Origin: Mycobacteriales bacterium
Lineage (GTDB): Bacteria; Actinomycetota; Actinomycetes; Mycobacteriales; SCTD01
Direction of reading: 5' to 3'
NCBI GenBank assembly: GCA_046593925.1
Contig: JBKJQN010000061.1
Location: forward strand, 2,410 to 66,409
DNA: 64,000 nt
Shown here: piece by piece, positions 934 to 53,929 of the stretch
Numbering within the stretch: position 1 is the stretch's first letter
How the letters are laid out: the number at the start of each line of letters is the position of its first letter
The notes under the pieces: model-generated
Database searches by the model: none
Seen by the model: the letters and a program-made list of their open reading frames with translations, nothing else
What the model was told of the DNA's origin: nothing
Position numbers and translations under genes: made by a program

Positions 934-3519
934 ATGAGCGCTGCACAGATCGTCGTCACCCTGGCCGGTCTGACAACGGCAGTCGGCCTGGGCTGGTTCT
1001 TCTTTCGCGCCCGGACGGCGACCGACGCCGTCGAGCGGGGCGGCGTCCAGCAGGCGCGGGTGGTGGTCAGGGGCGGCTACTCGCCCGACGTCATCAAGGC
1101 GCGCGCCGGTGTCCCGCTGCGCATCACGTTCGACCGGCAGGAGGCCGGCGACTGCAGCGCCCGGGTCGTCTTCGCCGACCTCGCCCAGAGCGCCTGGCTG
1201 GCTCCACGCGCCGAGACGACGGTCGAGCTGGCGCTGGACCGACCGGGACAGGTCGACTTCTCCTGCGGCATGAACATGATCCACGGGACGGTCATCGTCG
1301 AGGGCGACATCAGCGACCCGGTGGACGGCGTCGCCACGGCCGACAGCGCGTCCGGGGGCGCCGGTCTGCCTGGCAGCACCAGCGACGGGGCGATGGCGCC
1401 GACAGCTGCCGACACGCAGGACCGGGAGGCAGCCGGCCGCCGGCGGGAGGTCAAGGACCTGACCCGCAGGCTGGTGGTCGGTGCCGTCCTGACGGTTCCG
1501 GTGTTCGCCGCGGTGATGGCGGACGGCCTCGGCGCCGGCTGGGTGCCGAGCGTGCTGCTGGACCGGTGGGTCCAGCTCGCGTTGATCGCACCGGTGATGG
1601 GGTGGGTCGGCTGGCCGATCCACCGCACCGGCTGGCTCGCGCTCGCGCACCGGGCCGCAGACATGAATAGCCTCATCACTCTCGGTACGGTCGCGGCGTT
1701 TGGCTACTCGACGGTGGTGACCGTCACTCCGGGCCTGGTCCCCCAGGACGTATGGGGGGTCTACTTCGAGGCCGTTGGCGTCATCATCACGTTGATCATG
1801 CTCGGCCGGCTGCTGGAGGCCCGGGCGAAGGCCGGCACCGGTGAGGCAATCCGCCGGCTGATCGGCCTGCAGCCGGCGATCGCCCGGGTGCTGCGCGACG
1901 GCGTCGAGGTGGAGGTCGAGGTCGCGGAGGTCATCGCCGGTGACATCGTGACGGTCCGGCCCGGCGAGAAGATTCCCGTGGACGGCACGGTCGTGGACGG
2001 CCGGTCCAGCGTCGACGAGTCGATGGTGACCGGTGAGTCCATGCCGGTCGGCAAGGCCGTCGGCGACTCGGTCGTCGGGGCGACGCTGAACCAGACCGGC
2101 GCCTTCAGCATGCGCACGACGAAGGTCGGCCGTGACTCGACGCTCGCCCAGATCGTCCGCCTCGTGCAGGCCGCGCAGAGCTCCAAGGCACCGATCCAGC
2201 GGACCGTCGACGCGATCTCGCGCTACTTCGTGCCGGCGGTGCTGCTGGTCGCGATAGCGAGCTTTGTCATCTGGTACGACGTCGGCCCCTCGCCGGCCCT
2301 CACGTTCGCACTGGTGTCCGCGGTGGCCGTACTGATCATCGCCTGCCCCTGTGCGCTGGGGTTGGCGACCCCGCTGTCGATCATGGTGTCGACCGGCAAG
2401 GGCGCGGAAGCCGGCGTGCTGATCCGCTCCGCCGCCGCGCTGGAGACCGCGCACCGGCTCGACACACTGGTCCTGGACAAGACCGGGACACTGACCCGGG
2501 GCCACCCCGAGCTCACTGACGTCATGACGGTCGGCGAGCTCGGCAGGGCCGAGCTACTGAGCTTTGTCGCGGTGGCCGAGCGGCGCTCCGAGCACCCGCT
2601 CGCCGGTGCGCTGGTCGCCGGCGCCCGGGACGAGGGCATCGAGCTGGGCGAGCCGGACGCGTTCGACTCCGTCACCGGCATGGGCATCCTCGCGACGGTC
2701 CGCGGCCACCGGGTCCACATCGGCAATGCCCGGCTGCTCACCGACGTGGGCATCGACCCGGCTCCAATGGCGGCGACGGCTGAGTCCCTCGCCGCTGACG
2801 GCAAGACCCCCATGCTCGTCGCGGTCGACGGCCGGCCCGCCGGCATCGTGGCGGTCGCGGACCGCATCAAGGACGACGCCGCCGCGGCGGTCGCTGCGCT
2901 CAAGCACCGCGGGATCGTGGTTGTCATGCTCACCGGGGACAACCGGCGGACCGCCGAGGCCGTCGGGCGAGTCGTGGGGGTGGACCGGGTCCTGGCCGAG
3001 GTCCTGCCCGGTGACAAGGTCGCCGAGGTCCGGCGCCTGCAGGCTGACGGCCGACTCGTCGGGATGGTCGGGGACGGCATCAACGACGCCCCGGCCCTGG
3101 CCCAGGCCGACGTCGGCATCGCGATCGGCACCGGCACCGACGTCGCTATCGAGGCCGCAGACATCACCCTCATGTCCGGGGCACTCACCGGGCTGGTCAC
3201 AGCCATCGCCCTGTCCGGGGAGACGATGCGCAACATCCGCCAGAACCTGGTGTTCGCGTTCGGGTACAACGCGCTGGGCATCCCGCTCGCCGCCGGCGCG
3301 CTGTATCCGTTCGTCGGCCTGCGTCTGAGCCCGATGATCGCGGCTGCGGCGATGGCTGCGAGCTCGCTGTCCGTCGTCACGAACGCCAACCGGCTGCGCC
3401 GGTTCCAGCCCCCGCGGCTCGTCGCGACGCAGCGCCCGGAGATACCGCCGAGCACCGCCGTACCGGGCCGACCCGACCTGCCGGAGCCGGTCCCCGCCCG
3501 AACCCGCGCCGGCGCGTGA
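934..3519 (+). CDS. copA: Copper-translocating P1B-type ATPase with N-terminal cupredoxin-like domain instead of a CxxC HMA domain
   Basis: ORF 928..3519; ATG 934 follows GAGGAG. Motifs: GDCSARVVF...[14 protein letters not shown] (cupredoxin-like), TM CPC ([12 protein letters not shown]), [15 protein letters not shown]. Confidence 0.9.
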
Positions 3520-6335
3520 CCGGCTGGGACCCAGCGGGGAACGCGCCCGGCGTCACCGCGGTCTCCGCGCTGCGCGCACCGGTGCACGCCGCGGGTGTTG
3601 CCGAGGTCACCGCGCTGCTGTGCACCGACGCCGCCCGCGGGCTCGCGGCCGGGTCGGCGGCAGAGCGACTCCTCGAGGTCGGGCCGAACGAGCTCGACGG
3701 CCAGGGGAAGGCGGGCTGGGCCGGCATCCTGTGGGGCCAGCTCAGCTCACCCATGATCGTCCTGCTGGCGGCGGCCGGGCTGTTGTCCGCATTGCTCGGC
3801 GACGTCACGGAGGCGGTCGTCATCTGCGGCGTCGTCCTGCTCAACACCGGTATCGGCTTTCGGCAGGAGTACCGGGCGCAGGCCGCGATGGCGTCGCTGC
3901 AGGTTCTGGCAATCCCCACGGTGAGCGTGGTGCGGGACGGCCGGGTGACGGAGGTCGTGGCCCGCGAGCTCGTACCCGGCGACCTGGTCCGGCTGGAGGC
4001 CGGCGTCCGGGTGCCCGCCGACGGGCGCCTGGTCGAGGCGTACGCACTTCGTGTGGAGGAAGCCACGCTGACCGGCGAGTCGGTCCCCGCGGACAAGGGC
4101 CGCGAGCCGGTTGCCCTGACGGCGCCACTGGCCGAGCGGGCGTCGATGGCGTACGCGGGGACCAGCGTGGCTTCGGGCCGCGGGTCGATGCTCGTCACGG
4201 CCACCGGCATGCGGGCCGAGCTCGGCCGGATCGCCGGGCTGCTGCGGGGCGCCGACCCGGGCCGGACCCCGCTGCAGCGGCGGCTCGACGTGCTGGTCCG
4301 GCGGCTCGCCCTGGTCACCGGCGGCGTGGTGCTGGTGGTCACCGGACTGGGTGTCCTGCAGGGGCAGAGCTTCGACAGGCTCGTCCTGACGGCGGTCAGC
4401 CTGGCCATCGCGGCCATCCCGGAGAGCCTGCCGGCGGTGGTGACGATCACCCTGGCGCTCGGGGCCCAGCGGATGCTGCGGCGCCGCGCGCTGGTGCGGC
4501 ACCTGTACGCCGTCGAGACCCTCGGGTCGGTGACGACGATCTGCTCGGACAAGACCGGCACGTTGACCCAGAACCGGATGGTCGTCACGGCTCTGGAGAC
4601 CGCGGACGACCACCGCGTCGTCCCTCCTGAGGTGGGTGATGCCGACCCGCAGGGGCTCGACACCGCAGCACTGCGGCTGCTCGTCGTGGGTGCCATCTTG
4701 TGCAACGACACCGTGACGGGCGAGGACGGCGGGCTCACCGGTGATCCCACCGAGACCGCGCTCGTGGTGGCCGGCCGGCGGTACGGGATGGACAAGCAGT
4801 CGCTGGACGCGGCGTGGCGTCGGGTGGGGGAGCTGCCCTTCGACGCCGATCGCAAGCGCATGACCACCGTCCACGCCCTGCCGTCCGGGCCGGACGTAGC
4901 GCCCACAGGGTGCGGCCTGGCTGTCCTGCAGGACGCCCCAGGCGGCCGGGTGGCGTTCACCAAGGGTGCGCTGGACGGCCTGCTGGAGTGCTGCGACACC
5001 GTCCTGGTCGACGGCCGGCCCGTACCGCTGGACGCCGGACGCCTCGCCGCTGCCCGCGCGGCCGGGGAGCGCCTCGCGGCGGACGGCCTCCGCGTGCTCG
5101 GCGTCGCCATGCGCGTCTGGCCGGCATCGCTCGAGGTCGACCATGACCTGTCCGTTGAGTCGTCGATGACCCTGCTCGGCGTACAGGGGATGATCGACCC
5201 GCCGCGCAGCGAGGTCGCCGCGTCCGTTGCCCTGTGCCGGGCGGCCGGTGTCCGCGCCGTCATGATCACCGGGGACCACCCACTCACGGCCCGCGCAGTC
5301 GCCCGTGAGCTCGGCATCGCCGACGTCGGGGATCACATCGTCACCGGTGCCGAGCTGGCCGCCCAGGATGACGACGAACTCGTGGCGACGGCACGTTCGA
5401 CGTCGGTGTACGCACGGGTGTCGCCGCAGGACAAGCTGCGGGTGGTCGAGGCGCTGCAGCGCGACGGCGGCATCGTGTCGATGACCGGGGATGGGGTCAA
5501 CGACGCCCCCGCGCTGAAGCAGGCCGACATCGGCGTTGCCATGGGCATCACCGGGACCGACATCAGCAAGGAGGCCGCCGACGTCGTCCTGCAGGACGAC
5601 GACTTCTCGACGATCGTCGGTGCGGTCCGCGAGGGCCGCACCGTCTTCGACAACATCAGGAAGTTCATTCGCAACATCCTCAGTGGCAACCTCGCCGAGG
5701 TGGCGATCATGGTCCTCGCCCCGCTGATCGGCATGCCCATCCCGTTGCTGCCGCTGCAGATCCTCTGGCTGAACCTCGCCACCGACGGCCTGCCGGCCAT
5801 CGCGCTGGCCGTCGAACCCGCCGAGCCCGACATCATGCGGCGACCGCCGACCGCCCGGGGCGCGAGCCTGTTCGGTGCCGACGGTGGCCGCCTCATCCTG
5901 GTGCGGGGCACGGTGCTGACGGTGCTGACGCTGGTCCCGACGTACCTGCTGTGGCGGGCCGGCGACGCCGCCTGGCAGACGGTGTTGTTCACCTCGATCG
6001 CCTTCGCCGAGCTTGCGGGTGGCTTCGCCATGCGCTCCGAGGACCGCCCGCTCTGGCGCCTGGGAGCCTTCTCGAACCGGTCGCTGGTCGGAGCCGTGAT
6101 GCTGACCGTGACGCTGCAGGTGCTGCTGGTCACGGTCCCGCCGGTCCGTGGCGTCCTCGGGCTGCGGGCAATGGGGCAGGCGCACTGGCTGCTCAGCGTG
6201 GTCATCGCGATGGGCTACCTCGCGGCGATCGAGGCCGACAAAGCGCTACGCCGGCGCCCCCCGACCCCGAACGAGCCGAGCCGGGACGTTCGGCCCTGGC
6301 GACCGGACGAGCCGCGGTTAAAAGGTGCAGCATGA
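3516..6335 (+). CDS. P2-type cation-transporting ATPase (CtpF / Ca2+-ATPase-like)
   Basis: The GTG overlaps the copA stop (GTGA). Motifs: [40 protein letters not shown]. Long C-terminal TM bundle, no CPC motif. Confidence 0.88.
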
Positions 6336-7737: not shown

Positions 7738-8306
7738 GTGCACCTCGGAAAGGGGCCGACGCCGGCCCTGACGGCCCACCGGGTATCCCGACGCGATGTG
7801 CTGAAGGCCTTCGGCGTCGGAGGCGCCGCTGTGGTCGTCGTCGGTACGGGGGCGCCGAGCTACCGGGTGTTCGACAGCGGCGCCTTGGATCCGGGCAGCC
7901 GCGCGGCGTGCGACCCGTGGGACCACTGGCACGACCCGGGCCCGCTCGGGGCGATCGGCGCCGCTGTGCTGGCAGCGAGCCCGCACCGCACCCAGCTGCC
8001 GCCGTTCCACGTCACGGCCGGTGCGATCGACGTACACGTCGTCGCGTCGCGCAATCTCGGCTCCTGCTCGCCGGGCCGGCCCCGCCGCTCCTGCGCCAGG
8101 CCCCGGCGCGCTCGGCATCGAGATAGGCAGGCCGTTCCGCCCTGGCTATCGAGGTACGCCGGGCTGCCGGCGGCGACGCCGGCTTCCTGACCGAGATGCT
8201 CGTCGCCGGTGCGGACCAGCGGCCGGACGTGCCGACCGTGACACCCGCCCGGCGCGGTGCGCTGACGATGCTGCTGCCCCTGGACCGGCCGGAGAGCAGT
8301 CTGCGG
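7738..8306 (+). pseudogene. Remnant of an Acg-family (nitroreductase-like) FMN oxidoreductase with Tat-like signal; truncated and frame-broken
   Basis: N-terminus SRRDVLKAFGVGGAAVV...DPWDHWHDPGPLGAIGAAVLAASPHRTQLPPFHV..IDVHVVASRNLG fits the family. Similarity then scatters over three frames (e.g. GALGIEIG, FLTEMLVAG). Only about 190 codons of space remain before crcB. Confidence 0.45.
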
Positions 8307-8723
8307 TCAGAGCGCAGTCAGGCCGAGCCCGACGGCGGCCGCGACGGTCGTGACCGCGAGGGTGCCCAGCGCATTCCACGCGGCGAGGTCCACCCGACCG
8401 TCCTGGGCGAGCCTGACGCTGGTGACCGACACCGCCGAGAAGGTTGTGAAGCCACCGCAGAAGCCGGTGCCGAGCGCGACCCGCAGCAGATCCGGGGCGC
8501 CGCGGAACAGCACCAGCCCGGTGAGCAGGCCGAGCAGCAGACTGCCCAGCGTGTTGACCAGCAGCGTCGGCCAGGGGAAGACCGGCGGCCGCCGGACCAG
8601 CAGGGCGCCGTCGAGGACGACCCGGGCGACCGCGCCCAGCCCGCCCGCCAGCCCGACCGCGACCGTCAGGCCCACCGATACCTGCCCCGGCGCTCCGGCG
8701 GCCGCAACGAGCCCGGAACTCAC
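8307..8723 (-). CDS. crcB: Fluoride channel CrcB/FluC, downstream copy
   Basis: C-terminal part of ORF 8307..9020: FPWPTLLVNTLGSLLLG...GTGFCGGFTTFSAVS. The GTG at 8723 overlaps the stop of the upstream crcB (GTGA). Confidence 0.88.
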   Translation of the reverse strand: MSSGLVAAAGAPGQVSVGLTVAVGLAGGLGAVARVVLDGALLVRRPPVFPWPTLLVNTLGSLLLGLLTGLVLFRGAPDLLRVALGTGFCGGFTTFSAVSVTSVRLAQDGRVDLAAWNALGTLAVTTVAAAVGLGLTAL

Positions 8724-9160
8724 TGAGTTGGCCTGGGGACGAGCGCGGCGCCGAGCAACAGCCCGGCAGCCCCGGCGGCCAGGCCAGTGAGCGCGCTGCC
8801 CGTGCCGTAGGCGACTGCGAGCGCCGCGCGGTTGTCGCGCACCAGCAGCACCACCTCGACGGCGAGCGAGGAGTACGTGGTGAAGGCGCCGAGCACGCCG
8901 GCACCAAGTGCCAACCGCAGGGCGCGCCGGCGGCCTTCGTCGGGACCGCGCCTGGCCAGCCCCTCGAGCAGCACGCCCAGCAGCAGGGCGCCGGGAAGGT
9001 TGGCGAGCAGGGTCGCCCACGGCAGCGCGCCGGCTGGCACCGTGCGGATCAGGGCCCAGCGGAGCAGGGCACCCGCGCTGCCGCCGATGAGGACCAGGAC
9101 CAACAGACGTGGCTGCAGATGAGCCGGTTTCGGGTCAACGCGCTGCGGTTGGACGGGCAC
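8720..9160 (-). CDS. crcB: Fluoride channel CrcB/FluC, upstream copy
   Basis: C-terminal part of ORF 8720..9571: LPWATLLANLPGALLLG...GAGVLGAFTTYSSLA. The in-frame GTG at 9160 is my best start; the start is uncertain. Confidence 0.82.
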   Translation of the reverse strand: MPVQPQRVDPKPAHLQPRLLVLVLIGGSAGALLRWALIRTVPAGALPWATLLANLPGALLLGVLLEGLARRGPDEGRRRALRLALGAGVLGAFTTYSSLAVEVVLLVRDNRAALAVAYGTGSALTGLAAGAAGLLLGAALVPRPTQ

Positions 9161-9302
9161 GAGACATCCTCGCCCACCAGCCTCGCAGCGGGGCCGGAGG
9201 CGTACTCGCCACCCGATCGGCGGACAAGAGCGGCGTTCAGCCGGTCGACATGGACGTGGACCGGCCCCCGCCTCCTCGCCCTTCGCCGTTTCTGGAGCCC
9301 CT

Positions 9303-10271
9303 GTGACCACCTCCCGCCGCCTGCTCGCCACCCTGCTGACCCTCCCGCTCCTGGGCGCCGTCGCCTGGGCCGCTCCCGCCGGCGCCACGCCCGGTGCCGC
9401 CGACAGCGGCGCTGGGGCCGTGGCTACCCACAGTGCCCCGGCGCTCGCCGGTGCCTCTGTCGCCGGCAAGACCCTGTTCGGTGTGTCGCTGTCCCGGCAG
9501 GGATCGGAGACCCGCGCTGAGACGGTCGCCCGCAATGTGCGTACGTTCGGCTCGCTGCCGGTCGTCCGCATCTACGACGGCAAGCCGCCGACCACCTGGG
9601 CGGCCAACAGCTCTCTCTCGACGCTGCCCGCCGGCACGTCGGTGATCTACACCTTCTCGGTACCGGACATGACCGCTGCAGCCAACGGCGCGTACGACGC
9701 CAACGTCGCGTCGATGCTGGCCAGCCGCCCAGCCGGCAGCATCGTGTGGATGGGCCTGCAGCACGAGCCGGAGGGCCACGTCGCCGCCGGCGAGTTCACG
9801 GCAGCGCAGTACCGCGCGGCCACCTCCCACGTCGCGAAGGTGATCAAGGCCTACGGCGGGATCCCGACCACGGTGCTCACCGGCTCCACCGCCTACGCGG
9901 CAAGGGGACAGGGCTACCTGGACTACTACAGCCCCGACATCGACGTCCTCGCTTGGGACGCCTACAACAGCGGTCAGAGGAAGCCAGGCACCACTTACAG
10001 GGACGCCTCGCGCTTCCTTACCCCGGTCCTGCGGATCGCGGCAGAGACCGGCAAGCAGTACGGCTGGGCCGAGTTCGGGGCGCCGTGCATCGTCACCGAC
10101 CCCAGCTGCGCCGAGCGGTCCCGTTGGCTGCCGGTGCTCGGGCAGGGCCTGGCCGACGGCGGGGCGCAGTTCGTGTCGTACTGGAACCACCTGTCGCTCA
10201 ACGGGACCACTGACTACAGCCTCCTCGACGCAGCGTCGGTAGCAGCCTGGAAGGGCCTGATCGCCCGCTGA
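9303..10271 (+). CDS. Secreted TIM-barrel glycoside-hydrolase-like protein (GH26-like; function tentative)
   Basis: Signal peptide MTTSRRLLATLLTLPLLGAVAWAAPAGA. Candidate catalytic motifs GLQHEPEG and GWAEFG spaced as in clan GH-A enzymes. Confidence 0.6.
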   Translation: MTTSRRLLATLLTLPLLGAVAWAAPAGATPGAADSGAGAVATHSAPALAGASVAGKTLFGVSLSRQGSETRAETVARNVRTFGSLPVVRIYDGKPPTTWAANSSLSTLPAGTSVIYTFSVPDMTAAANGAYDANVASMLASRPAGSIVWMGLQHEPEGHVAAGEFTAAQYRAATSHVAKVIKAYGGIPTTVLTGSTAYAARGQGYLDYYSPDIDVLAWDAYNSGQRKPGTTYRDASRFLTPVLRIAAETGKQYGWAEFGAPCIVTDPSCAERSRWLPVLGQGLADGGAQFVSYWNHLSLNGTTDYSLLDAASVAAWKGLIAR

Positions 10272-10347: not shown

Positions 10348-12393
10348 ATGCACCGGAGCACCCTGCGCCATTCCCGCGCCCGGCTCGTGCGGGCGACCGC
10401 CCTGGTGGCGGTTGCCCCGCTCGTGCTGCTGCTCACGGCCGCCGGGGCGGGCGCCTCGACGGTGTCGCAGGACGGCCTGCCGAGCGCGGTGCCGTCCGCG
10501 GCGACGCCGAACCTCAACGACGGCAACGTCTTTGCAATCACCCAGGTGGGCTCGAGGATGCTGCTGGGCGGCTCGTTCACCAGCGTCAGCCCGCCCGGCA
10601 GCATCAATGGCGCGGGCGCCGTGCCGCGACGCGGCGTGCTGGCTTTCGACGCGGGCAGCGGCGCCGTCGACGGGGGCTTCCACCCGCAGCTGGACGGCGA
10701 CGTCCAGGGCCTCGCGGCCGGCCCGACGCCCGGCACCGTCTACGTGGCCGGCACCTTCAACACCGTCAACGGCGCGGTGGCCAAGAGCATCGCGCTGCTC
10801 GACCTGTCCAACGGCCAGCTCGTGTCGGGCTTCTCGCCCGCCCCGATGAACGGCTCCGGCCAGGCCGTGCAGCTGGTCGGCGGCCATCTGATCCTGGCGG
10901 GCACCTTCACCACGGTCGGCGGCTCGGCGCACGGCGGGATCGTCTCGCTGGACCCGCGCTCCGGTGCGGTCGAGAGCTACCTGGGCATCCAGCTGGCCGG
11001 CCACCACAGCTTCACCGGCTTGCCGGGCCAGTCCAAGGCCCCCGTCGGCGGCCGAAAGATGGACATCAGCGCCGATGGAAGCCAGCTCGTCCTGGTCGGC
11101 AACTTCACCACCGCCAACGGGATGCCCCGTGACCAGATCCTGCGTCTCAACCTGGGTGCGGCCGCCGGCACCGTCGACGGCAGCTGGTCCACCCTGGCCT
11201 TCACGGCGATCTGTGGCCCCAAGTACGACACTTACGTACGTGACATCAGCTACTCACCGGACGGTTCGTACTTCATTGTCGCCACGACCGGCAGCGGGGG
11301 TCCCGGCGCGACCAACAATGACGGCAGCCGGGCGTTGTGCGACTCCGCGTCGAGGTTCAACAACGCGGCCAACGGGTCCAACGTCAAGCCGGCCTGGATC
11401 GACTACACCGGCAACGACTCGCTGGAGTCGGCGCTGTCCACCGGCGCCGTCGTCTACGTCGGCGGTCACCAGCGCTGGCTCAACAACGCCAACGGCAAGG
11501 ACAATGCCGGCGCCGGCGCCGTGCCCCGTCCCGGCATCGCCGCGCTCGACCCGGTCACCGGCCTGCCGCTGAGCTGGAACCCCGGCCGCAACCCCCGCGG
11601 CGCCGGGGCGTACGCGCTCTACGCCAGCCCGCAGGGCGTCTATGTCGGTAGCGACACCACCTTCATCGGCAACCGGCAGTACTACCGCGGCCGCATCGCC
11701 GCCTTCCCGCTGGCCGGCGGCAGCTCACTGCCGTCGACCGCGACCGCCGTGCTACCGGGCACCGTGTTCTCCGTCGGCCCGCTGACCGGGCCGCGCGACG
11801 CTCTGCGGGCCCGGAGCTTCGACGGCTCTGCCGCCGGCGCGGCGGGCAACGGCCCCGCCAGCTCGACCACCTGGAGCCAGGCCCGCGGGGCGGTGCTGAT
11901 CGGCAACCAGTTGTTCTACGGCTGGTCCGACGGCACGCTGCGCCAGCGGACGCTGTCCGGCGCCGCTCTCGGCAACCCGCAGTCGATCGACCCGTACAAC
12001 GACCCGTTCTGGTCGACCGTCCCGACCGGCAGCCGAGGCACCGTCTACCGGGGCACGGTCCCCACGCTGTACGGCGCGCCGATGAGGAGCGTCACCGGGA
12101 TGGTGTACGCCGCGGGGCGGCTGTACTACAGCATCGCGGGGCAGCCCCGGCTGAGGTCGCGGGCCTTCACCCCGGAGTCCGGCATCCTCGGGGCGACGGA
12201 GACCGTCGAGGGAGGATCGGTCGACCTGTCCGGGATCGCCGGGATGTTCCTGTCCGCGCAGACCTTGTACTACGCCGCGGCAAACGGCTCGCTGCACGCC
12301 GTGCCGTTCGCCCAGGGCTCGCCGACCACGGCAGGCGACAGGGTCGCCAACTCGACCACGAACTGGCGGGCCCACGGGCTGTTCCTGGGCTAG
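10348..12393 (+). CDS. Large secreted repeat (beta-propeller-like) protein, paralogue of 49628..51610
   Basis: Signal peptide. Recurring blade-like units (V.QVG.R.LLGG.FT.V; LVLVGNFTTANG; VYVGGHQRWLNN). Clear collinear similarity to the second copy, e.g. GIAALDPVTGLPLSWNPGRNPRG vs AIAALDPANGLPLSWNPSRDQRG. Confidence 0.75.
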   Translation: MHRSTLRHSRARLVRATALVAVAPLVLLLTAAGAGASTVSQDGLPSAVPSAATPNLNDGNVFAITQVGSRMLLGGSFTSVSPPGSINGAGAVPRRGVLAFDAGSGAVDGGFHPQLDGDVQGLAAGPTPGTVYVAGTFNTVNGAVAKSIALLDLSNGQLVSGFSPAPMNGSGQAVQLVGGHLILAGTFTTVGGSAHGGIVSLDPRSGAVESYLGIQLAGHHSFTGLPGQSKAPVGGRKMDISADGSQLVLVGNFTTANGMPRDQILRLNLGAAAGTVDGSWSTLAFTAICGPKYDTYVRDISYSPDGSYFIVATTGSGGPGATNNDGSRALCDSASRFNNAANGSNVKPAWIDYTGNDSLESALSTGAVVYVGGHQRWLNNANGKDNAGAGAVPRPGIAALDPVTGLPLSWNPGRNPRGAGAYALYASPQGVYVGSDTTFIGNRQYYRGRIAAFPLAGGSSLPSTATAVLPGTVFSVGPLTGPRDALRARSFDGSAAGAAGNGPASSTTWSQARGAVLIGNQLFYGWSDGTLRQRTLSGAALGNPQSIDPYNDPFWSTVPTGSRGTVYRGTVPTLYGAPMRSVTGMVYAAGRLYYSIAGQPRLRSRAFTPESGILGATETVEGGSVDLSGIAGMFLSAQTLYYAAANGSLHAVPFAQGSPTTAGDRVANSTTNWRAHGLFLG

Positions 12394-47714: not shown

Positions 47715-48560
47715 TCAACGGATGCCGAGCCCGCCACCATCGACGACAGCAGCGGTCAGTGGTCGGACCAGCCGACGCAGCCGCCTCGCGCCGTCCTCGC
47801 CGAGCGCCTCCCAGGCGGGCAGGGCGAGCCGGTCGGTGGCGTCCTCGACCCGCTGGCGGTGCGCTTGGCCCGCGTCGGTGAACCGGGCGTCCGGGGTCAG
47901 CCAGCCCCGAGCCACCAGAGCGGCGACCGCACCGTCCCACTCCTCGTCGGAGTAGGCCCGGGTGGCCTGCAGGCCCTTGCGCGTCCAACTGTCGCCGAGC
48001 GCGACGTGCAGGACCGCCGCCTCCAGCCCGGTGATGCCCTCACCCACCAGCGCGGCCACGTGTCCGTCGCCGCGGAACTCGCGCAGCAGGGTGACCGCGT
48101 GCCACAGCGCGAGGTGCGGTGGGTCCGGCCAGGGCAGGTCGGCGTGGGCGGCGTACAGCGGGCGGCCGTACGGCGTGCAGCCGGTCGTCGCGGTCCGGGC
48201 CAGTGCGGCGGCCTCCGCGACCGACGGGTCGTTGAGCAGGTCGCCGCACAACCGCCGCAGCGCCCTGTCGGCGCCGCGCAGGCGCGCAGCGAGCAGCTGC
48301 TCGGGCCCGGCCACGTCCCAGGCACCGGCGAGGCCGAAATCGACGGCGAGCCGGGAGAAGTTGAAGAAGGTGGCCTGTACGACGCCCGGGCCGACTCGGC
48401 CCATCGCGGCGGCCCGCGCCGGGAAGTAGCCGACGGCCCGGTTGGCCGCCACGTCGAAGCCGAGTGCGGTGTACTCCTCCTGCGGCTCCCGCGCGAAGTA
48501 GATCATCGCGTGGTAGGGCTCCATGGCTCGCCAGCTCCGACGTGCGATGTCGGGCTCCAC
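47715..48560 (-). CDS. Conserved actinobacterial hypothetical protein (resembles what I recall as the SCO6745 family)
   Basis: 281 aa: MEPYHAMIYFAREPQEEYTALG...YFPARAAAMG...LREFRGDGHVAAL. Family name from memory only. Confidence 0.6.
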   Translation of the reverse strand: MEPDIARRSWRAMEPYHAMIYFAREPQEEYTALGFDVAANRAVGYFPARAAAMGRVGPGVVQATFFNFSRLAVDFGLAGAWDVAGPEQLLAARLRGADRALRRLCGDLLNDPSVAEAAALARTATTGCTPYGRPLYAAHADLPWPDPPHLALWHAVTLLREFRGDGHVAALVGEGITGLEAAVLHVALGDSWTRKGLQATRAYSDEEWDGAVAALVARGWLTPDARFTDAGQAHRQRVEDATDRLALPAWEALGEDGARRLRRLVRPLTAAVVDGGGLGIR

Positions 48561-48643
48561 GGTGCCTCCTGCGGTCGGCGAGCGTGCAGTGGACCACGCC
48601 GGGCAGCGGGCGTGGTGCGGCGTCGGCAGGGCAGGATCGGTTC

Positions 48644-49213
48644 GTGACCCAGCCTTCGCAGCAGCAGTCCGAGCCGGACGACCCGGCCACGCACCAGGTC
48701 GTCGTCATCGGCCCCGACGGGCAGCCGATCGTCACCGCCGAGGTGCCGGCCGCCGACAGGACCGAGGAGAAGAATCCGGCCGAGATGGTGGAGCAGCCCG
48801 CGAAGGTCATGCGGATCGGGTCGATGGTCAAGCAGCTGCTGGAGGAGGTCCGCGCCGCGCCGCTCGACGACGCGGCGCGCGAGCGGCTGGCGGCCATCCA
48901 CACCACCTCGGTACGCGAGCTGTCGGAGGGTCTGGCTCCCGAGCTCCGCGAGGGGCTCGGCCGGCTGACCCTGCCGTTCGGCGACAACGCACCCTCCGAC
49001 GCCGAGCTGCGGGTAGCGCAGGCCCAGCTGGTCGGCTGGCTCGAGGGGTTGTTCCACGGCATCCAGACCGCGCTGTTCGCCCAGCAGATGGCGGCGAAGA
49101 TGCAGCTCGAGCAGGCGCAGGGACGCGGCCGACCGGCCATCGAGGGGCCGCCGATGGGCCCCGGTGGCCAGTCGGCGCTCGGCCCGACCAGCGGGACCGG
49201 GCAATACCTCTAG
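48644..49213 (+). CDS. bpa: Bacterial proteasome activator (Bpa/PafE family)
   Basis: Part of ORF 48464..49213, GTG 48644. Helical core MRIGSMVKQLLEEVR...QLVGWLEGLFHGIQTALFAQQM, disordered tail ending in GQYL. Confidence 0.8.
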   Translation: MTQPSQQQSEPDDPATHQVVVIGPDGQPIVTAEVPAADRTEEKNPAEMVEQPAKVMRIGSMVKQLLEEVRAAPLDDAARERLAAIHTTSVRELSEGLAPELREGLGRLTLPFGDNAPSDAELRVAQAQLVGWLEGLFHGIQTALFAQQMAAKMQLEQAQGRGRPAIEGPPMGPGGQSALGPTSGTGQYL

Positions 49214-49255
49214 CAGCACCTGCAGCGGCTCCTCCAGGCTAGTTCGGGTAACTAC

Positions 49256-49271
49256 GGTCGGGGGCCCGACC
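49256..49271 (+). terminator. GC-rich hairpin GGTCGG-gggc-CCGACC downstream of bpa
   Basis: Read directly, 43 nt after the bpa stop, in a locally less GC-rich stretch. No clear U-tract. Confidence 0.3.
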
Positions 49272-49322
49272 GAGCGGGTCGGACTATCACTTCTGACCAA
49301 TCCGGCCAAGCGCGGTGGCCGG

Positions 49323-49550
49323 GTGGGGGTGGAAGCGGAAGGCTGGCTCGTGGCCAGCGGACAGCAGACGTCGGGGCGCCCGAGATGGCGAGTCCTCAGT
49401 CAGCACGAGGTGCGCAGGATCGTGCTGTGGTGCGGTGGCTGCGACGCCGAGCTGCCCCTGCCGACGGAGGACCCGGCCTTCGAGCATCGGCTGGCAGGGT
49501 TCTTCGAGGATCACGCGACGTGCCGGACGACGCTGACCATGCCGGCGTGA
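49323..49550 (+). CDS. Small hypothetical Cys-containing protein (possible zinc-ribbon-like)
   Basis: Tail of ORF 49164..49550, start at GTG 49323 or 49329. Motifs: LWCGGCDAELPLP...FEDHATC. Third codon positions are mostly G/C, consistent with real coding. Confidence 0.4.
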   Translation: MGVEAEGWLVASGQQTSGRPRWRVLSQHEVRRIVLWCGGCDAELPLPTEDPAFEHRLAGFFEDHATCRTTLTMPA

Positions 49551-49627
49551 GGGCCGGCCACCCGCCGTGGAGGTTAACCTTGCCCGGACGAACACGGGTG
49601 TCGGCCCGGTCGGATCGAGGAGGATCA

Positions 49628-51610
49628 GTGCGGCTGCGCCGGCAGCAGGGTGTCCGGCCCGTGGCGCTGCTCGCCGCGCCCGTCCTGGTGGCTGCGGTCG
49701 GCCTCGTCGTGGGGCTCGGGCCGTCGCCCACACCGGCGGCGGCGGGGGTCGTGCAGAGCACCCTGGTCTCGGACAAGCCGGCCGGCCTGACCCCGCAGGT
49801 GCTGGACGGCTCCGTGAATGCCATCGTGCAGGTCGGCAACCGGATCATGCTCGGCGGCACGTTCACCCAGGTGCAGGACAACGCCGCCGGGTCGCCCGTG
49901 CTCACCCGCCAGGGCCTGCTGGCTTTCGATGCCACCACCGGAGTCGTCGACCGGAACTTCGATCCGGCGCTCCCAGCCACCGCCATCACGTCGCTGGAGA
50001 CCGACGCGGGCCAGACGGCGCTGTGGGTCGGCGGACAGTTCAGCAGCGCGCCCCTGTCGCGGCTGCTGAAGCTGTCGCCAGCGACGGGAGCCCCCGTCGC
50101 GGGGTTCGACGCGCCGGTCGACCTGCTGGTGACCGACCTGGTGGTGCGCGGCCAGCGGCTGTACGTCGGTGGTCAGTTCACCAGCATCTCCGGGGCGAGC
50201 CGTGGCGGCCTGGCCGCTGTCGACAAGGACAGCGGGGCTGTCTCGGCCGACCTCGACCTGCCGATCAGCGGACGCAACCACGGCGGCCCGACCGGGATCA
50301 TCAAGTTCGACGTCACACCCGATGGGCGCACCCTCGTCGCCGTCGGCAACTTCACTGCCGTGGCCGGCCGCACCCGCGGGCAGATGGTCATGGTCGACCT
50401 GCCGGTCGCCGGCCCAGCTCGGGTAACGCCCTGGGCGACGCTCCGCCTCGGCGACGTGTGCAACGCCGAGTTCCCGACCTACCTGCGCAACCTCGACATC
50501 GCCCCCGACGGCTCATACGTGGTCGTGTCGACCACCGGCGGAGCGCACCCGGGCACCCTGTGCGATAGCACCTCGCGTTGGGAGATCGGTCCGGCCAACC
50601 CGGACGCGGAGCCCAGCTGGGTCGACTCGACGGGTGGGGACACCACGTATGGGGTATCGGTGACCGGCGCCGCGGTCTACCTCGGGGGCCATTTCCGGTG
50701 GGAGAACAACCCGGGTGGTGCCGACTTCCCGGGCCCCGGTGCGGTCGCCCGCGAAGCCATCGCGGCCCTTGACCCGGCGAACGGCCTGCCGCTCTCCTGG
50801 AACCCCTCACGCGACCAGCGAGGCGTCGGCGCGCAGGCGATGTATGCCACAAGTACGGGGCTATGGGTGGGCAGCGACACCGAGCTGATTGGGCAACCGC
50901 CGGAGCGGCACGCTCGGATCGCCTTCTTCCCTCTTGCGGGCGGTGAGGTGCTGCCGGACGTGCGGCCCGCGAGCTGGCCCGGCAACGCCTTCCAGTTCAG
51001 CCAGGGCACGTTGACCACGCGCCCGGTCGGCGCGTCAGGTGTCGCGACGGGGCCGGCAACGACCGTGCCGCAGTCGCCGGCTGTCGACTGGTCTGCCGAC
51101 GGTGGGCCGTTCGTCGTCACCAGGGGTGCCGGCAGCACGCTCTACTACGGGGGGGCTGACGGTGGCCTGTACGCCCGCACGTACGACCCCACCTCCGCCG
51201 CCGTAGGCCCCGAGCGGGCCGTCAACCCCTACGACCCCGCGGCTCGGCTGCTGCCCTTCGCCGCCGCCTCCCCATCCTCAGCCTCCCAGCTCGTCGGTGC
51301 CTTCTACGACCCGGCGGGCCATCGGCTGTACTACCTGCTGGTAGGCGATCCGGCGCTGCACTACCGATACTTCTCGCCCGAGAGCGAGGTCGTCAGCGCC
51401 CAGCAGATGACGGCCCCGAGCCCCGGCGTCGACTTGCGCGGCGCGACCGGGCTCGCCCTGGTCGGCAGCCGGGTGTACGTCACCGGCGCCGACGGCGCGC
51501 TCCGCTCGGTGCTGTTCGCACGCGGCGCCATCGCTGGCAGCGCGGTCGTCGTCGAACCGCCCGGCGCCTGGACCGGCCGCGGCCTGTTCGCCGCGCCGGC
51601 GCCGTCGTGA
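49628..51610 (+). CDS. Large secreted repeat (beta-propeller-like) protein, paralogue of 10348..12393
   Basis: Part of ORF 49385..51610. GTG 49628 follows GAGGAGGA. N-terminal signal/anchor LLAAPVLVAAVGLVVGLG. Collinear similarity to the first copy along the whole length. Confidence 0.75.
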   Translation: MRLRRQQGVRPVALLAAPVLVAAVGLVVGLGPSPTPAAAGVVQSTLVSDKPAGLTPQVLDGSVNAIVQVGNRIMLGGTFTQVQDNAAGSPVLTRQGLLAFDATTGVVDRNFDPALPATAITSLETDAGQTALWVGGQFSSAPLSRLLKLSPATGAPVAGFDAPVDLLVTDLVVRGQRLYVGGQFTSISGASRGGLAAVDKDSGAVSADLDLPISGRNHGGPTGIIKFDVTPDGRTLVAVGNFTAVAGRTRGQMVMVDLPVAGPARVTPWATLRLGDVCNAEFPTYLRNLDIAPDGSYVVVSTTGGAHPGTLCDSTSRWEIGPANPDAEPSWVDSTGGDTTYGVSVTGAAVYLGGHFRWENNPGGADFPGPGAVAREAIAALDPANGLPLSWNPSRDQRGVGAQAMYATSTGLWVGSDTELIGQPPERHARIAFFPLAGGEVLPDVRPASWPGNAFQFSQGTLTTRPVGASGVATGPATTVPQSPAVDWSADGGPFVVTRGAGSTLYYGGADGGLYARTYDPTSAAVGPERAVNPYDPAARLLPFAAASPSSASQLVGAFYDPAGHRLYYLLVGDPALHYRYFSPESEVVSAQQMTAPSPGVDLRGATGLALVGSRVYVTGADGALRSVLFARGAIAGSAVVVEPPGAWTGRGLFAAPAPS

Positions 51611-53154
51611 AGCTCCTGCGCCGGTTTGCCGCCGGCCTGGCGCTGGCCGTGCTCGCGACCACGGTGCTCGGACCGTCGGCGCCGGCCAAGGCCGCCACGC
51701 CGGTCTGGACAGTGACCTATCAGGGCACGCCGCCGGCCGCCGCCCAAGCCGCCGTGCAGCGGGCGGTTGACGCCTGGGCCGCGGTTTTCCCGTCGACCCG
51801 GCCGGTCAGCGTCCAGGTCACCTGGGGGGCGCTGCCGGTCGGCACGCTGGCGGTCGGCGCCCCCGCGGACGTCGTGGTGCACCGGCCCGATACGGGGGTG
51901 CTCTACCCCATCGCACTGGAGGAGGCCACTGCCGGCACCGACCTGAACGCCGGTGCCCCCGACGTCACCATCGCCCTCCAGGGTGACGACGCACTCTGGT
52001 CCTACACCACAACCCCCGACCCGACGCGCTACGACCTCGCGACGCTGACGATGCGAGCGCTGGGTACCGGGCTGGGGATCGGCAGCGGCACGGCAGTGCG
52101 GTCGGGCCTGGGCAGCTATGGCGCCGACGACAACGGCGACGGTGCGGGTGACGGCGGCTACCCACCGGTGTACGACGCCCTCGTCGCGGGCTCCGCTCCC
52201 CGACCCGCGGCGCTGCTCGACCAGCCGAACGGCTCGGCGGTGCTGGCGACGGCTCTGACGTCGGGCGCGCTGACCTGGACCGGGGCTCAGGCGACCGCAG
52301 TGACAGGCAGCGCCCCCGTGCTGGCGACCCCGGCGAACTGGACGGCCGGGGTGACCGGGTCTTACCTGGACGAGACGCGCTACCCCCGTGGGAGCGCCGA
52401 CGCCCTGATGACCCCCGTCATAGATCGGGGTGAGGTGGTGTCAGCGCCGGGTCCGGTCGCGACGGCGATGCTGCGAGACATGATCAACGACCCGGGAGCG
52501 GTCGGTGCGCCGGTACGGCACTACGTGAACGAGCTCTACCACTCCTTCCTGTACCGCGACGTCGACCCCACCGGGCTGCCCTACTGGACGGCGCAGCTCG
52601 TGACCGGACAACTGAACCGCCTGCAGGTCGCGGTCGCGCTGAGCCAGAGCCAGGAGTACCTCCAAGCCGTCGTCACCGTCCTGTACAACGACGTGCTCGG
52701 CCGCGCCCCCGACGCCGCCGGCCTGCAGGGCTGGGTCTCCCTCATCCAGGGCGGGCTGCCCATTGCGACGGTGGGAGCGAGCTTCTACGCGTCCGATGAG
52801 AATTATGCGCGCACAGGAGGCACGGCGGGAGCACCCGGGCCCTGGGTCGAGGGGCTCTACCGCGCCCTGCTCGGCCGGGCGTCGGACCCGGCCGGCAAGG
52901 CGTACTGGTCGGGGCAGGCCAAGACGCAGGGCCGGCTGTTCGTCACGACCCAGTTCTACGCCAGCAACGAGACGCTGGCCCGGCGCGTCAGCATGCTGTA
53001 CCTGGCGCTGCTCGACCGCGACGTCGACCCGGTCGGGCTGGCGTACTGGCCCGCTGTCGTACGCGACCAGGGGGACCTCGCGCTGGCGGCGGTGCTCGCT
53101 ACCTCCGACGAGTATTACCAGCGTGCGCTGAGCTATCCGCTGCCCTCCCCCTGA
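51607..53154 (+). CDS. Secreted protein: N-terminal metzincin-like domain with degenerate active-site motif plus four C-terminal DUF4214 repeats
   Basis: The GTG overlaps the upstream stop (GTGA). Signal peptide ...GPSAPAKA. DUF4214 units: LYHSFLYRDVDPTGLPYW, LYNDVLGRAPDAAGLQGW, LYRALLGRASDPAGKAYW, LYLALLDRDVDPVGLAYW. Confidence 0.75.
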   Translation: MKLLRRFAAGLALAVLATTVLGPSAPAKAATPVWTVTYQGTPPAAAQAAVQRAVDAWAAVFPSTRPVSVQVTWGALPVGTLAVGAPADVVVHRPDTGVLYPIALEEATAGTDLNAGAPDVTIALQGDDALWSYTTTPDPTRYDLATLTMRALGTGLGIGSGTAVRSGLGSYGADDNGDGAGDGGYPPVYDALVAGSAPRPAALLDQPNGSAVLATALTSGALTWTGAQATAVTGSAPVLATPANWTAGVTGSYLDETRYPRGSADALMTPVIDRGEVVSAPGPVATAMLRDMINDPGAVGAPVRHYVNELYHSFLYRDVDPTGLPYWTAQLVTGQLNRLQVAVALSQSQEYLQAVVTVLYNDVLGRAPDAAGLQGWVSLIQGGLPIATVGASFYASDENYARTGGTAGAPGPWVEGLYRALLGRASDPAGKAYWSGQAKTQGRLFVTTQFYASNETLARRVSMLYLALLDRDVDPVGLAYWPAVVRDQGDLALAAVLATSDEYYQRALSYPLPSP

Positions 53155-53164
53155 CCAGGAGCCA

Positions 53165-53929
53165 TTGATGAGCGTGCTGGACCGGTTCTCGCTGGAGGGC
53201 AAAGTCGCGGTGGTGACGGGGGCGTCCTCCGGGCTCGGCGTCGCGTTCGCCCAGGCGCTGGCGGAGGCCGGTGCCGACCTCGCGCTCGGCGCGCGCCGCG
53301 CCGAACGGCTTGCTGACACCGCCGGCCTGGTACGCGCCGCCGGCCGGCGCAGCATCGAGGTCGCCACGGACGTGTCCAGCCAGCCTGACTGCCAGGCGCT
53401 CGTGGACGAGGCGATGGCGGCGTACGGCAAGGTCGATGTGCTGGTCAACAACGCCGGGATCGGCACTGCCGTACCCGCGACCCGGGAGACCGTCGAGCAG
53501 TTCGAGCAGGTCATCGACGTCAACCTGAACGGCTGCTACTGGATGGCGCAGGCCTGTGGCCGCGTGATGCAGCCGGGCAGCAGCATCATCAACATCAGCA
53601 GCGTCCTGGGCATCACCACGGCCGGGCTACCGCAGGCCGCGTACGCCGCGAGCAAGGCCGGCCTGATCGGGCTGACCCGCGACCTGGCCCAGCAGTGGGG
53701 TGCGCGCAAGGGCATCCGGGTCAATTCGCTGGCGCCGGGCTTCTTCGCCTCCGAGATGAGCGACCAGTACGCCCCCGGGTATCTGGACCAGATGATGACC
53801 AGGGTGCCGATGGGTCGAAAGGGCGATCCCGAGGAACTCGCTGCGGCGCTGGTTTTCCTGGCCAGTGCCGCCGGCGCGTACGTGACCGGACAGACCCTGG
53901 CGGTCGACGGCGGCCTGACGATCACCTGA
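53165..53929 (+). CDS. SDR-family oxidoreductase (FabG-like)
   Basis: VAVVTGASSGLG, NNAGIG, YAASKAGLIGLT. The start is TTG 53165 or ATG 53168. Confidence 0.88.
   Translation: MMSVLDRFSLEGKVAVVTGASSGLGVAFAQALAEAGADLALGARRAERLADTAGLVRAAGRRSIEVATDVSSQPDCQALVDEAMAAYGKVDVLVNNAGIGTAVPATRETVEQFEQVIDVNLNGCYWMAQACGRVMQPGSSIINISSVLGITTAGLPQAAYAASKAGLIGLTRDLAQQWGARKGIRVNSLAPGFFASEMSDQYAPGYLDQMMTRVPMGRKGDPEELAAALVFLASAAGAYVTGQTLAVDGGLTIT

Follow-up and report, generated by a model that had tools for sequence, protein, structure and literature searches.

Introduction

The elements from which the proteins of this study are assembled have been described before: the beta-propeller, the metzincin fold, the DUF4214 domain, and the pseudoenzyme are all known, and the architecture that joins a protease domain to DUF4214 has been noted in the literature. 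Matrix metalloproteinases combine a catalytic metzincin domain with the hemopexin beta-propeller, which has four blades. Pseudoenzymes that still bind their substrate typically keep the fold while losing catalysis. Here, we describe two adjacent genes, called gene 2 and gene 3 below, found in a stretch of 64,000 nucleotides (nt) from a Mycobacteriales bacterium (assembly GCA_046593925.1, contig JBKJQN010000061.1, positions 2,410 to 66,409 of the forward strand). This whole stretch is the window of our analysis. Gene 2 encodes a secreted double beta-domain protein with a predicted propeller, and gene 3 a secreted protein in which a metzincin-fold domain that has lost its active site precedes four DUF4214 repeats. 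The novelty lies in what is joined: from a metzincin-like family that has not been described, an inactivated member occurs in translational coupling, or in fusion, with a single clade of double propellers, whose family is uncharacterised and associated with polysaccharides.

The described proteins most similar in architecture to gene 3 are those with DUF4214. Psh, an RTX-DUF4214 protein of Pseudomonas putida, binds the O-antigen of lipopolysaccharide, and DUF4214 proteins elsewhere bear cargo domains that include metallopeptidases (preprint 10.64898/2026.09.02.748959). In segmented filamentous bacteria (SFB), DUF4214 was proposed as the surface-anchoring domain of surface proteins (PMC12780176). 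Like Psh and the SFB proteins, gene 3 is an exported protein with DUF4214 (here as four clear C-terminal repeats), and it resembles the proteins with metallopeptidase cargo in that its own cargo has a metzincin fold. It differs from Psh in having neither RTX repeats nor a type I secretion system (T1SS; no RTX/HemolysinCabind match) and in using a Sec-type leader instead. It differs from both Psh and the SFB proteins in its Gram-positive-type, high-GC host, in the inactivation of the protease cargo, and in its separate or fused propeller partner, and any glycan binding by its repeats would be by analogy with these systems.

For gene 2, the closest named proteins are the DUF5122 propellers and the "malectin domain-containing carbohydrate-binding proteins" of Actinomycetota. 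It is 41-52% identical to proteins so named, its model is an all-beta propeller, and it has repeat-level similarity to DUF5122 (PF17164, E 2e-4). Unlike them, it lacks a malectin insert, and its overall DUF5122 score (22 bits) is below the Pfam cut-off of 27. Some of its homologues carry a precomputed PF17164 match. Our search for literature on DUF5122 returned one incidental paper only.

Two secreted proteins encoded as one unit

An earlier note on this DNA had regarded genes 2 and 3 as one unit and both of their products as secreted, and both views hold. The leaders of the two proteins are Sec-like, with Arg/Lys in the n-region, a hydrophobic core, and a putative cleavage motif (AAA-G in gene 2, AKA-A in gene 3). 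The stop codon of gene 2 overlaps the start codon of gene 3 within GTGA (Table 1), which we read as translational coupling of the two genes. The same pair, again with a 4-nt overlap, is found in two related loci: L006, with a propeller 80% identical to that of the window and the overlap ATGA, and L001, with a propeller 59% identical and the overlap GTGA. The starts of the orthologues of gene 2 in L001 and L006 are preceded by GGAGGA or GAGGAG motifs similar to the Shine-Dalgarno-like sequence of the window. Separately, we observed that the gene 3 orthologue of L001 (positions 7959-9547 of that locus) is broken by one frameshift into open reading frames (ORFs) of 281 and 248 amino acids (aa), which may be an error of long-read assembly or real decay.

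In a third related locus, the contig of a metagenome-assembled genome (MAG) from NCBI (L086), the two proteins form a single in-frame fusion of 1,162 aa (P0230). Its parts, in order, are the propeller (54% identity), a linker (GPPPPAPAPAS), and a C-terminal half that is 58% identical to gene 3 and consists of the dead metzincin domain and four DUF4214 repeats. The internal signal peptide, i.e., that of gene 3, is gone, and the Pro-rich linker takes its place. We considered whether the fusion could be a sequencing artefact and rejected this, because an error of one base would not delete a signal peptide and insert a Pro-rich linker. The presence of a metzincin-fold domain together with a beta-propeller, on one chain in P0230, recalls the matrix metalloproteinases, by analogy only. 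The order in P0230 is reversed, with the propeller first; the protease is dead; and the propeller has about seven blades and is followed by an extra domain, unlike the 4-bladed hemopexin domain, with no detectable sequence relation between the propellers.

We surveyed the neighbourhoods of 78 usable loci (from GTDB and from the propeller loci collected earlier), in which genes were called and the three neighbours on each side were clustered and identified with Pfam. The four propellers that are linked to a gene 3 relative form one clade in a neighbour-joining tree. The sister of this clade (P0004) has PKD domains and no DUF4214 neighbour, and across the 78 GTDB loci we saw no relative of gene 3 within 8 kb of the propeller. 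Because DUF4214 or dead-protease neighbours are absent from all 78, the pairing is best described as one clade-specific invention: the association of propeller and dead metzincin has a single origin, persists in all known members of the clade, and is rare. The same survey speaks against the suggestion that gene 2 belongs to a modular system with swapped partners, as most members of the family occur either without a partner or within polysaccharide loci.

Both the fusion and the translational coupling suggest that the two products act at a fixed ratio, probably in contact with each other. The two genes could instead share an operon and act independently, with no complex between their products and an adjacency that reflects nothing but co-regulated secretion. 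Most propellers of the family do have no such partner, and a short-chain dehydrogenase (SDR) gene that begins only 10-13 nt downstream of gene 3 is not conserved with the pair, so that tight spacing alone means little. Independent action would, however, leave unexplained why the 4-nt overlap is kept in three loci, why an in-frame fusion exists from which the second signal peptide was removed, and why the linked propellers are monophyletic; we therefore consider it rather unlikely.

The note had also proposed a third gene, so that a small Cys protein would open a secreted three-gene module. The ORFs on which this was based, the 77-nt gap, and the GTGA overlap are real, and a 75-codon ORF with CGGC...H..C residues does end 77 nt before the GTG of gene 2 (49628), on the same strand. 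It is the 3' portion of an ORF of 128 codons (49164-49550) and bears the motif WCGGC...H..HATC. Its GC content at third codon positions (GC3) is coding-like (0.86-0.90), and the small ORF may therefore be translated; an identical protein of 75 aa, of NCBI origin, is present in the protein database. These observations and its position favour the inclusion of the small ORF. Against it, a search of 5.8 billion proteins returned this identical entry, i.e., the protein itself, as the sole match; no signal peptide could be read in its sequence; and no counterpart precedes the pair in any of the three related loci. The similarity between L006 and the window is lost upstream of approximately 49605, where L006 has a different gene, and the genes upstream of the pair are an unrelated ORF of 78 aa in L001 and unrelated ORFs of 128 and 129 aa in L086. 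No Pfam, NCBIfam, or PADLOC model matched the small ORF either. Synteny thus retains genes 2 and 3 (fused in L086) and leaves out the small ORF. The three-gene reading is largely refuted, and we give it almost no credence: the small ORF is an unrelated orphan, and the module has two genes, not three.

The small ORF has features of its own. The spacing of its Cys and His residues in 49164-49550 is of the C2HC type (CxxC, about 27 residues, HxxC) and could allow zinc binding. The coding-like GC3 is confined to the 3' two-thirds of the 128-codon ORF, which makes one of the internal GTG codons (49350, 49410, or 49422) a possible true start.

A metzincin-fold domain that has lost its active site

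Gene 3 had been labelled a DUF4214 protein, which is correct and incomplete. PF13946 matches it in four stretches with 117.7 bits, far above the cut-off of 23.2 (E 2.3e-34), and is the sole family that Pfam finds there. The note could assign no function to the protein, but a family can be named for the N-terminal half, which is predicted to have the metzincin fold with a destroyed active site. This half is difficult to identify by simple means. A search of the PDB with the sequence of gene 3 found nothing, and a word-indexed protein search with the N-terminal half returned only the protein itself and one active relative (P0122), which has HELGHGLGF where gene 3 has MRALGTGLGI. An exhaustive HMMER profile search with the domain, in turn, reached 5703 cluster representatives at E<=1e-3, of which 1807 at 1e-30.

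The fold was inferred from an AlphaFold2 (AF2) model. The predicted local distance difference test (pLDDT) score is mostly >90 in aa 30-300 and <50 in residues 1-23, within the signal peptide. The top Foldseek matches in the PDB are all metzincins (leishmanolysin 1lml, 4in9, 1you, and 5th9), with probabilities of 0.98-1.00 and E-values from 5.5e-3 to 2.8e-2. The best is leishmanolysin (probability 1.00 over 240 columns), followed by karilysin, MMP-13, and MMP-9, and the further matches include ADAMs, astacins, and BMP1. The family profile touches the catalytic domains of matrix metalloproteinases (MMP-16, E 0.009) at the HExxH helix. Active relatives match the NCBIfam model NF038122 ("metallo_LGF") at 69-84 bits, one of them above the curated cut-off of 80, and gene 3 itself has no match to this model at E<=0.1. 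The literature that we searched contains no papers that mention NF038122 or metallo_LGF.

Gene 3 is thus homologous to >5,700 representatives with the motifs HELGHGLG, SHLDE, and LMTP and shares the predicted fold of metzincins of the leishmanolysin and matrixin types. We aligned the motifs of 170 domains from the best 150 proteins of this metzincin-like family. The H, E, and H of HExxH are present in 162, 164, and 164 of the 170 domains, and the distal His of SHLDE in 162 of the 164 domains without a gap at this position; all four residues occur together in 160 of the 164 domains that span both motifs. The conservation of the distal His suggests that it is the third zinc ligand. Leishmanolysin, too, has a His far downstream of its HExxH. 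Gene 3 differs from the active metzincins at each of these positions, and because R, A, T, and Y replace H150, E151, H154, and H253, neither zinc binding nor catalysis is expected of it. The Met of the Met-turn is present in all 160 domains without a gap there, including gene 3 (M268), and M268, T269, and P270 are invariant or nearly so (alignment A4). Given the replaced active-site residues, the predicted metzincin fold, and the four repeats, gene 3 reads as a pseudoprotease fused to DUF4214. This architecture also sets it apart from the metzincin-like family: among the 150 best representatives, only P0230 shares it.

The loss of the active site is shared by the orthologous domains of P0230 and L001. 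The degenerate helix MRALGTGLG is identical in gene 3 and P0230 and varies as MRALG[TA]GLG across P0230 and L001, and the position of Tyr253 is taken by Met in P0230 and by Phe in L001. Between the three full-length copies of the metzincin domain (window, P0230, and L001), identity is 56-60%, and in L006 it is 80% over the 50 aa that are visible. This retained identity, together with a GC3 of 0.89, indicates that the dead domain is maintained rather than decaying. The possibility that gene 3 is a decaying pseudogene was rejected for these reasons: its ORF is intact, its codon usage shows the normal bias, and relatives conserve it. A scan of the GTDB genomes with gene 3 revealed no relative, which places the source genome itself outside that collection, and a scan of metagenomes gave one distant match (36% identity), to the metzincin-like domain.

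The family at large shows two further peculiarities. Four giant proteins of about 5,000 aa (P0123-P0126) have five copies of the metzincin-like domain each, and some of these copies have a degenerate HExxH (LRALAQGLG, LVELARGLG, LGEMARGLG). Judging from these motifs, the active site was lost more than once in the family. In two other loci (L004, positions 2017-4544, and L005), two active metzincin-like genes stand in tandem with overlapping stop and start codons. The tandem member that was examined (P0122) ends in a sorting domain of the type IX secretion system (T9SS), from which the active family appears to be exported by a different route in another phylum.

A secreted propeller family with a polysaccharide context

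The model of gene 2, made with AF2 from an alignment of 59 sequences, is all-beta and of good quality (pLDDT 86, pTM 0.87). Residues 1-36 have a pLDDT <50 and correspond to the leader, which recurs with its AxA pattern in the consensus of the family. The predicted fold is that of a beta-propeller, whose blade count of about seven is estimated from motifs and strands, followed by a second all-beta domain (Table 1). Searches against known structures add little precision. Foldseek recovers only generic tandem propellers (probability 1.00 but TM scores of just 0.2-0.39), the sequence search of the PDB found no relative, and the comparison of the family profile (A3) with the PDB gave a single match at chance level.

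Twelve residues are invariant across the 59 sequences and make up a patch in blades 5-7: R287, D313, R317, D338, Y351, H355 (within GGHxRWxNN), R357, N361, R375, D382, R395, and D417. Gene 2 has just two Cys (C278 and C312), and this pair is conserved in the family. The invariant patch and the Cys pair accord with a location outside the cytoplasm and with a defined ligand or active site.

Gene 2 belongs to a large and uncharacterised family of actinobacteria. Our search returned no fewer than 1395 homologues, almost none of them named, and in the GTDB species genomes the family occupies at least 585 loci, nearly all labelled Actinomycetota. The hosts include Nocardioidaceae, Actinomadura, Kribbella, Nonomuraea, and Pseudokineococcus. 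Many relatives carry either a malectin domain, placed exactly at the junction of the two beta domains, or C-terminal PKD domains. In P0024, for example, the alignment places a malectin insertion of about 190 aa between residues ~455 and 486 of the window protein. Gene 2 itself lacks this insert in the alignment, and Pfam finds no malectin (PF11721) match in it; PKD domains are absent from it as well.

The neighbours of the propeller genes point in the same direction as the fused domains. Another propeller paralogue is the most frequent neighbour (38 of the 78 loci), followed by a 466-aa protein (28 loci) and a multipass membrane protein (27), both without family assignment. Then come a sulfotransferase (23), a protein with CBM96 and a GH26-like domain (17), a protein with a weak Wzz match (16), a GH26 protein (12; Pfam score 21.2 for a cut-off of 20.2), and a WecG/TagA glycosyltransferase (11). 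A Laminin-G/ConA-like protein and TauE were found in 8 loci each, and a polysaccharide flippase in 4. At least one of eight recurring clusters (the sulfotransferase, both GH26-type proteins, WecG/TagA, the flippase, the weak-Wzz protein, and the two unassigned proteins) is present in 44 of the 78 loci. On account of the malectin and PKD fusions and of these polysaccharide-type neighbours, the propeller family is tied, by association, to the synthesis or processing of extracellular polysaccharide. The guess that the locus might concern polymer interaction agrees with this context of GH26, CBM96, sulfotransferase, and WecG neighbours. We also note that the recurring neighbourhood resembles a locus for a possibly sulfated exopolysaccharide, of which we found no description.

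The window has exactly two copies of gene 2. As the note had claimed, the second copy is real and adjoins a different secreted protein (Table 1). This partner has no direct match in Pfam or the PDB, but a profile built from it and five homologues matches GH26 structures (4zxo at 3.1e-5, and also Man26A). Two Glu, E155 in HEPE and E257 in AEFG, are invariant across the six sequences, and E257 is aligned with the ETG motif of the GH26 chain of 4zxo. We presume from what is known of clan GH-A that both have catalytic roles. Homologues of this protein lie within a few kb of a propeller gene in 15 of the GTDB loci that were fetched (tblastn) and in 17 loci by clustering. Those beside propeller genes bear an extra N-terminal CBM96, in hosts such as Actinomadura, Spirillospora, and others.

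Table 1. Features of the gene pair, its paralogue, and the flanking genes, in positions of the window
Feature	Positions	Strand	Description
Partner of the gene 2 paralogue	9303..10271	+	secreted, GH26-like; HEPE and AEFG motifs
Gene 2 paralogue	10348..12393	+	681 aa; 36% identity to gene 2 end to end, E 6e-108; invariant patch of the family kept
HTH_67 regulator gene	47715..48560	-	divergent; Pfam 5e-97
Bpa/PafE bacterial proteasome activator gene	48464..49213	+	Pfam BPA 1e-66; C-terminus GQYL
Small orphan ORF	49323..49550	+	75 codons; CxxC...HxxC; GC3 0.86-0.90; outside the conserved unit
Shine-Dalgarno-like sequence	49617..49624	+	GAGGAGGA; 3 nt upstream of the gene 2 GTG (49628); read from sequence
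Gene 2	49628..51610	+	660 aa; secreted double beta-domain protein; GC3 0.89
Gene 2 signal peptide	49628..49744	+	about aa 1-39; MRLRRQQGVRP, hydrophobic core, PAAA-G; read from sequence
N-terminal beta-propeller, about seven blades (predicted)	49796..50962	+	aa 57-445; DSSP strands and seven GG-F/VG-type motifs
C-terminal all-beta domain (predicted)	50981..51595	+	about 200 aa, aa 452-656; three LYY/VYV..G.DG.L..R blade-like repeats
GTGA overlap, gene 2 stop and gene 3 start	51607..51610	+	4 nt; read from sequence
Gene 3	51607..53154	+	515 aa; secreted; signal peptide, dead metzincin-fold domain, four DUF4214 repeats; GC3 0.89
Gene 3 signal peptide	51607..51693	+	aa 1-29; MKLLRRF, hydrophobic core, AKA-A; read from sequence
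Metzincin-fold domain without active site (predicted)	51694..52506	+	aa 30-300; profile search, AF2, Foldseek
Degenerate zinc-binding helix MRALGTGLG	52051..52077	+	aa 149-157; family has LHELGHGLG; H150R, E151A, H154T
SYLDE	52360..52374	+	aa 252-256; family has SHLDE; Tyr253 at the putative third zinc ligand
Retained Met-turn DALMTP	52399..52416	+	M268
Four DUF4214 repeats	52516..53127	+	aa 304-352, 353-401, 413-459, 461-507; Pfam PF13946 and internal repeat alignment
SDR gene	53165..53929	+	short-chain dehydrogenase; start 10-13 nt past the gene 3 stop

A candidate surface complex that interacts with glycans

The analyses show directly how the genes are built, that a metzincin fold has lost its active site, that the pairing is conserved and in one case fused, and that the family has a glycan-type context. 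Beyond this, we propose that the products of genes 2 and 3 form a surface-tethered complex that interacts with glycans, a reading we hold with moderate confidence. Through their coupled translation, the two genes would supply a pair of exported proteins that cooperate outside the cell. Gene 3 would be both adaptor and anchor. Non-covalent contacts of its four DUF4214 repeats would keep it on a glycan of the cell envelope, and its dead metzincin domain, now devoid of zinc binding and catalysis, would offer a platform for binding. The working head would be gene 2, which would bind, or possibly cut, polysaccharide through the Arg/His/Tyr/Asp patch of its N-terminal propeller. We judge the evidence to be evenly poised on this overall picture, i.e., the physical complex, DUF4214 as the glycan anchor, and the ligand or activity of the propeller.

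Several observations weigh against it. The neighbours of the pair in the window are Bpa, HTH_67, an ATP-binding cassette (ABC) transporter, the SDR, and a symporter, with no polysaccharide genes nearby. The clade has only four members, among them one short contig, one frameshifted copy, and one MAG fusion, and most relatives of the propeller function without a DUF4214 partner. For the anchoring role of DUF4214, the sources are one preprint and inference from genomes of other phyla. In the gene 3 model, the DUF4214 part is poor (pLDDT <50), probably as a result of a thin alignment. Finally, the Foldseek matches to the metzincin fold have weak E-values (no better than 5.5e-3), though they are mutually consistent.

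The persistence of the protease fold and of the Met-turn after the loss of catalysis could also mean that the cleft of the dead metzincin still recognises peptides. It might bind the stem peptides of peptidoglycan or another protein, as a decoy, inhibitor, or targeting domain to which the propeller would be an accessory. A cell-wall role of this kind would accord with the LytR_cpsA_psr (LCP) gene that lies near the pair in L001, downstream and on the opposite strand, but such a neighbour was seen only once, and all the available functional context of the propeller family concerns glycans, not peptides. We find this explanation doubtful.

A role in biological conflict was considered as well, in which the pair would be a surface shield that masks a phage receptor, as in Psh, or a propeller-based threat sensor, as in EsrA. 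It shares the DUF4214 module with the former and a surface-exposed propeller with the latter. Nonetheless, RTX repeats and a T1SS are missing, the PADLOC scan for defence systems gave zero matches, and the clade of propellers, at 54-80% identity, is not notably hypervariable. The genes for MoxR, vWA, FHA, and kinase proteins are also absent among the examined genes immediately flanking the pair. We consider the role in conflict very improbable and rejected its EsrA-like version outright, as there is no MoxR, vWA, or FHA context.

The proposal of a surface-tethered, glycan-interacting complex has a bolder form, to which we assign a low probability. The propeller family would be a new class of extracellular proteins acting on polysaccharides, with a surface display based on a pseudoprotease in this clade. 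The propeller would be, e.g., a lyase or hydrolase for an acidic or sulfated exopolysaccharide of actinobacteria, working through the invariant Arg/His/Tyr/Asp patch. The metzincin, stripped of catalysis, would have been turned into an adaptor devoted to docking, which links the enzyme to the envelope through DUF4214.

These results do not overturn current views. Their value is in annotation and in pointing to a probable module for surface display or polysaccharide processing. They describe for the first time the anatomy of two large protein families without a studied member, together with a hypothesis that can be tested. These families are the secreted double propellers, present in hundreds of actinomycete species and often inside polysaccharide loci, and the metzincin-like family, with >5,700 cluster representatives and no Pfam model. 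In the pair, nature supplies a clear case of a bacterial pseudoprotease that selection has kept and that operon and fusion bind to a fixed partner. It also offers a Gram-positive-type context in which to ask if DUF4214 is a general anchor to envelope glycans.

Flanking genes and regulatory signals

The GC content is about 72% across the whole window, and coding frames are clearly marked by GC at third positions. A scan of 48900-53600 for sigma-70 promoters and terminators found none, which is uninformative at this GC content, and an Rfam scan of 48900-49900, which includes the 414-nt gap between bpa and gene 2, matched no riboswitch or leader family.

Downstream of the pair, the SDR gene has a GGAG ahead of an ATG at 53168 and may be co-transcribed with gene 3 in the window; it is not adjacent to the pair in L001 or L086. 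Upstream, the Bpa/PafE gene precedes the small ORF and is divergent from the HTH_67 regulator gene. Its presence marks the DNA as that of an actinomycete. The Bpa ORF as listed overlaps the 5' end of the HTH_67 gene by about 97 nt, and because of this overlap the true start of one of the two genes is probably further in.

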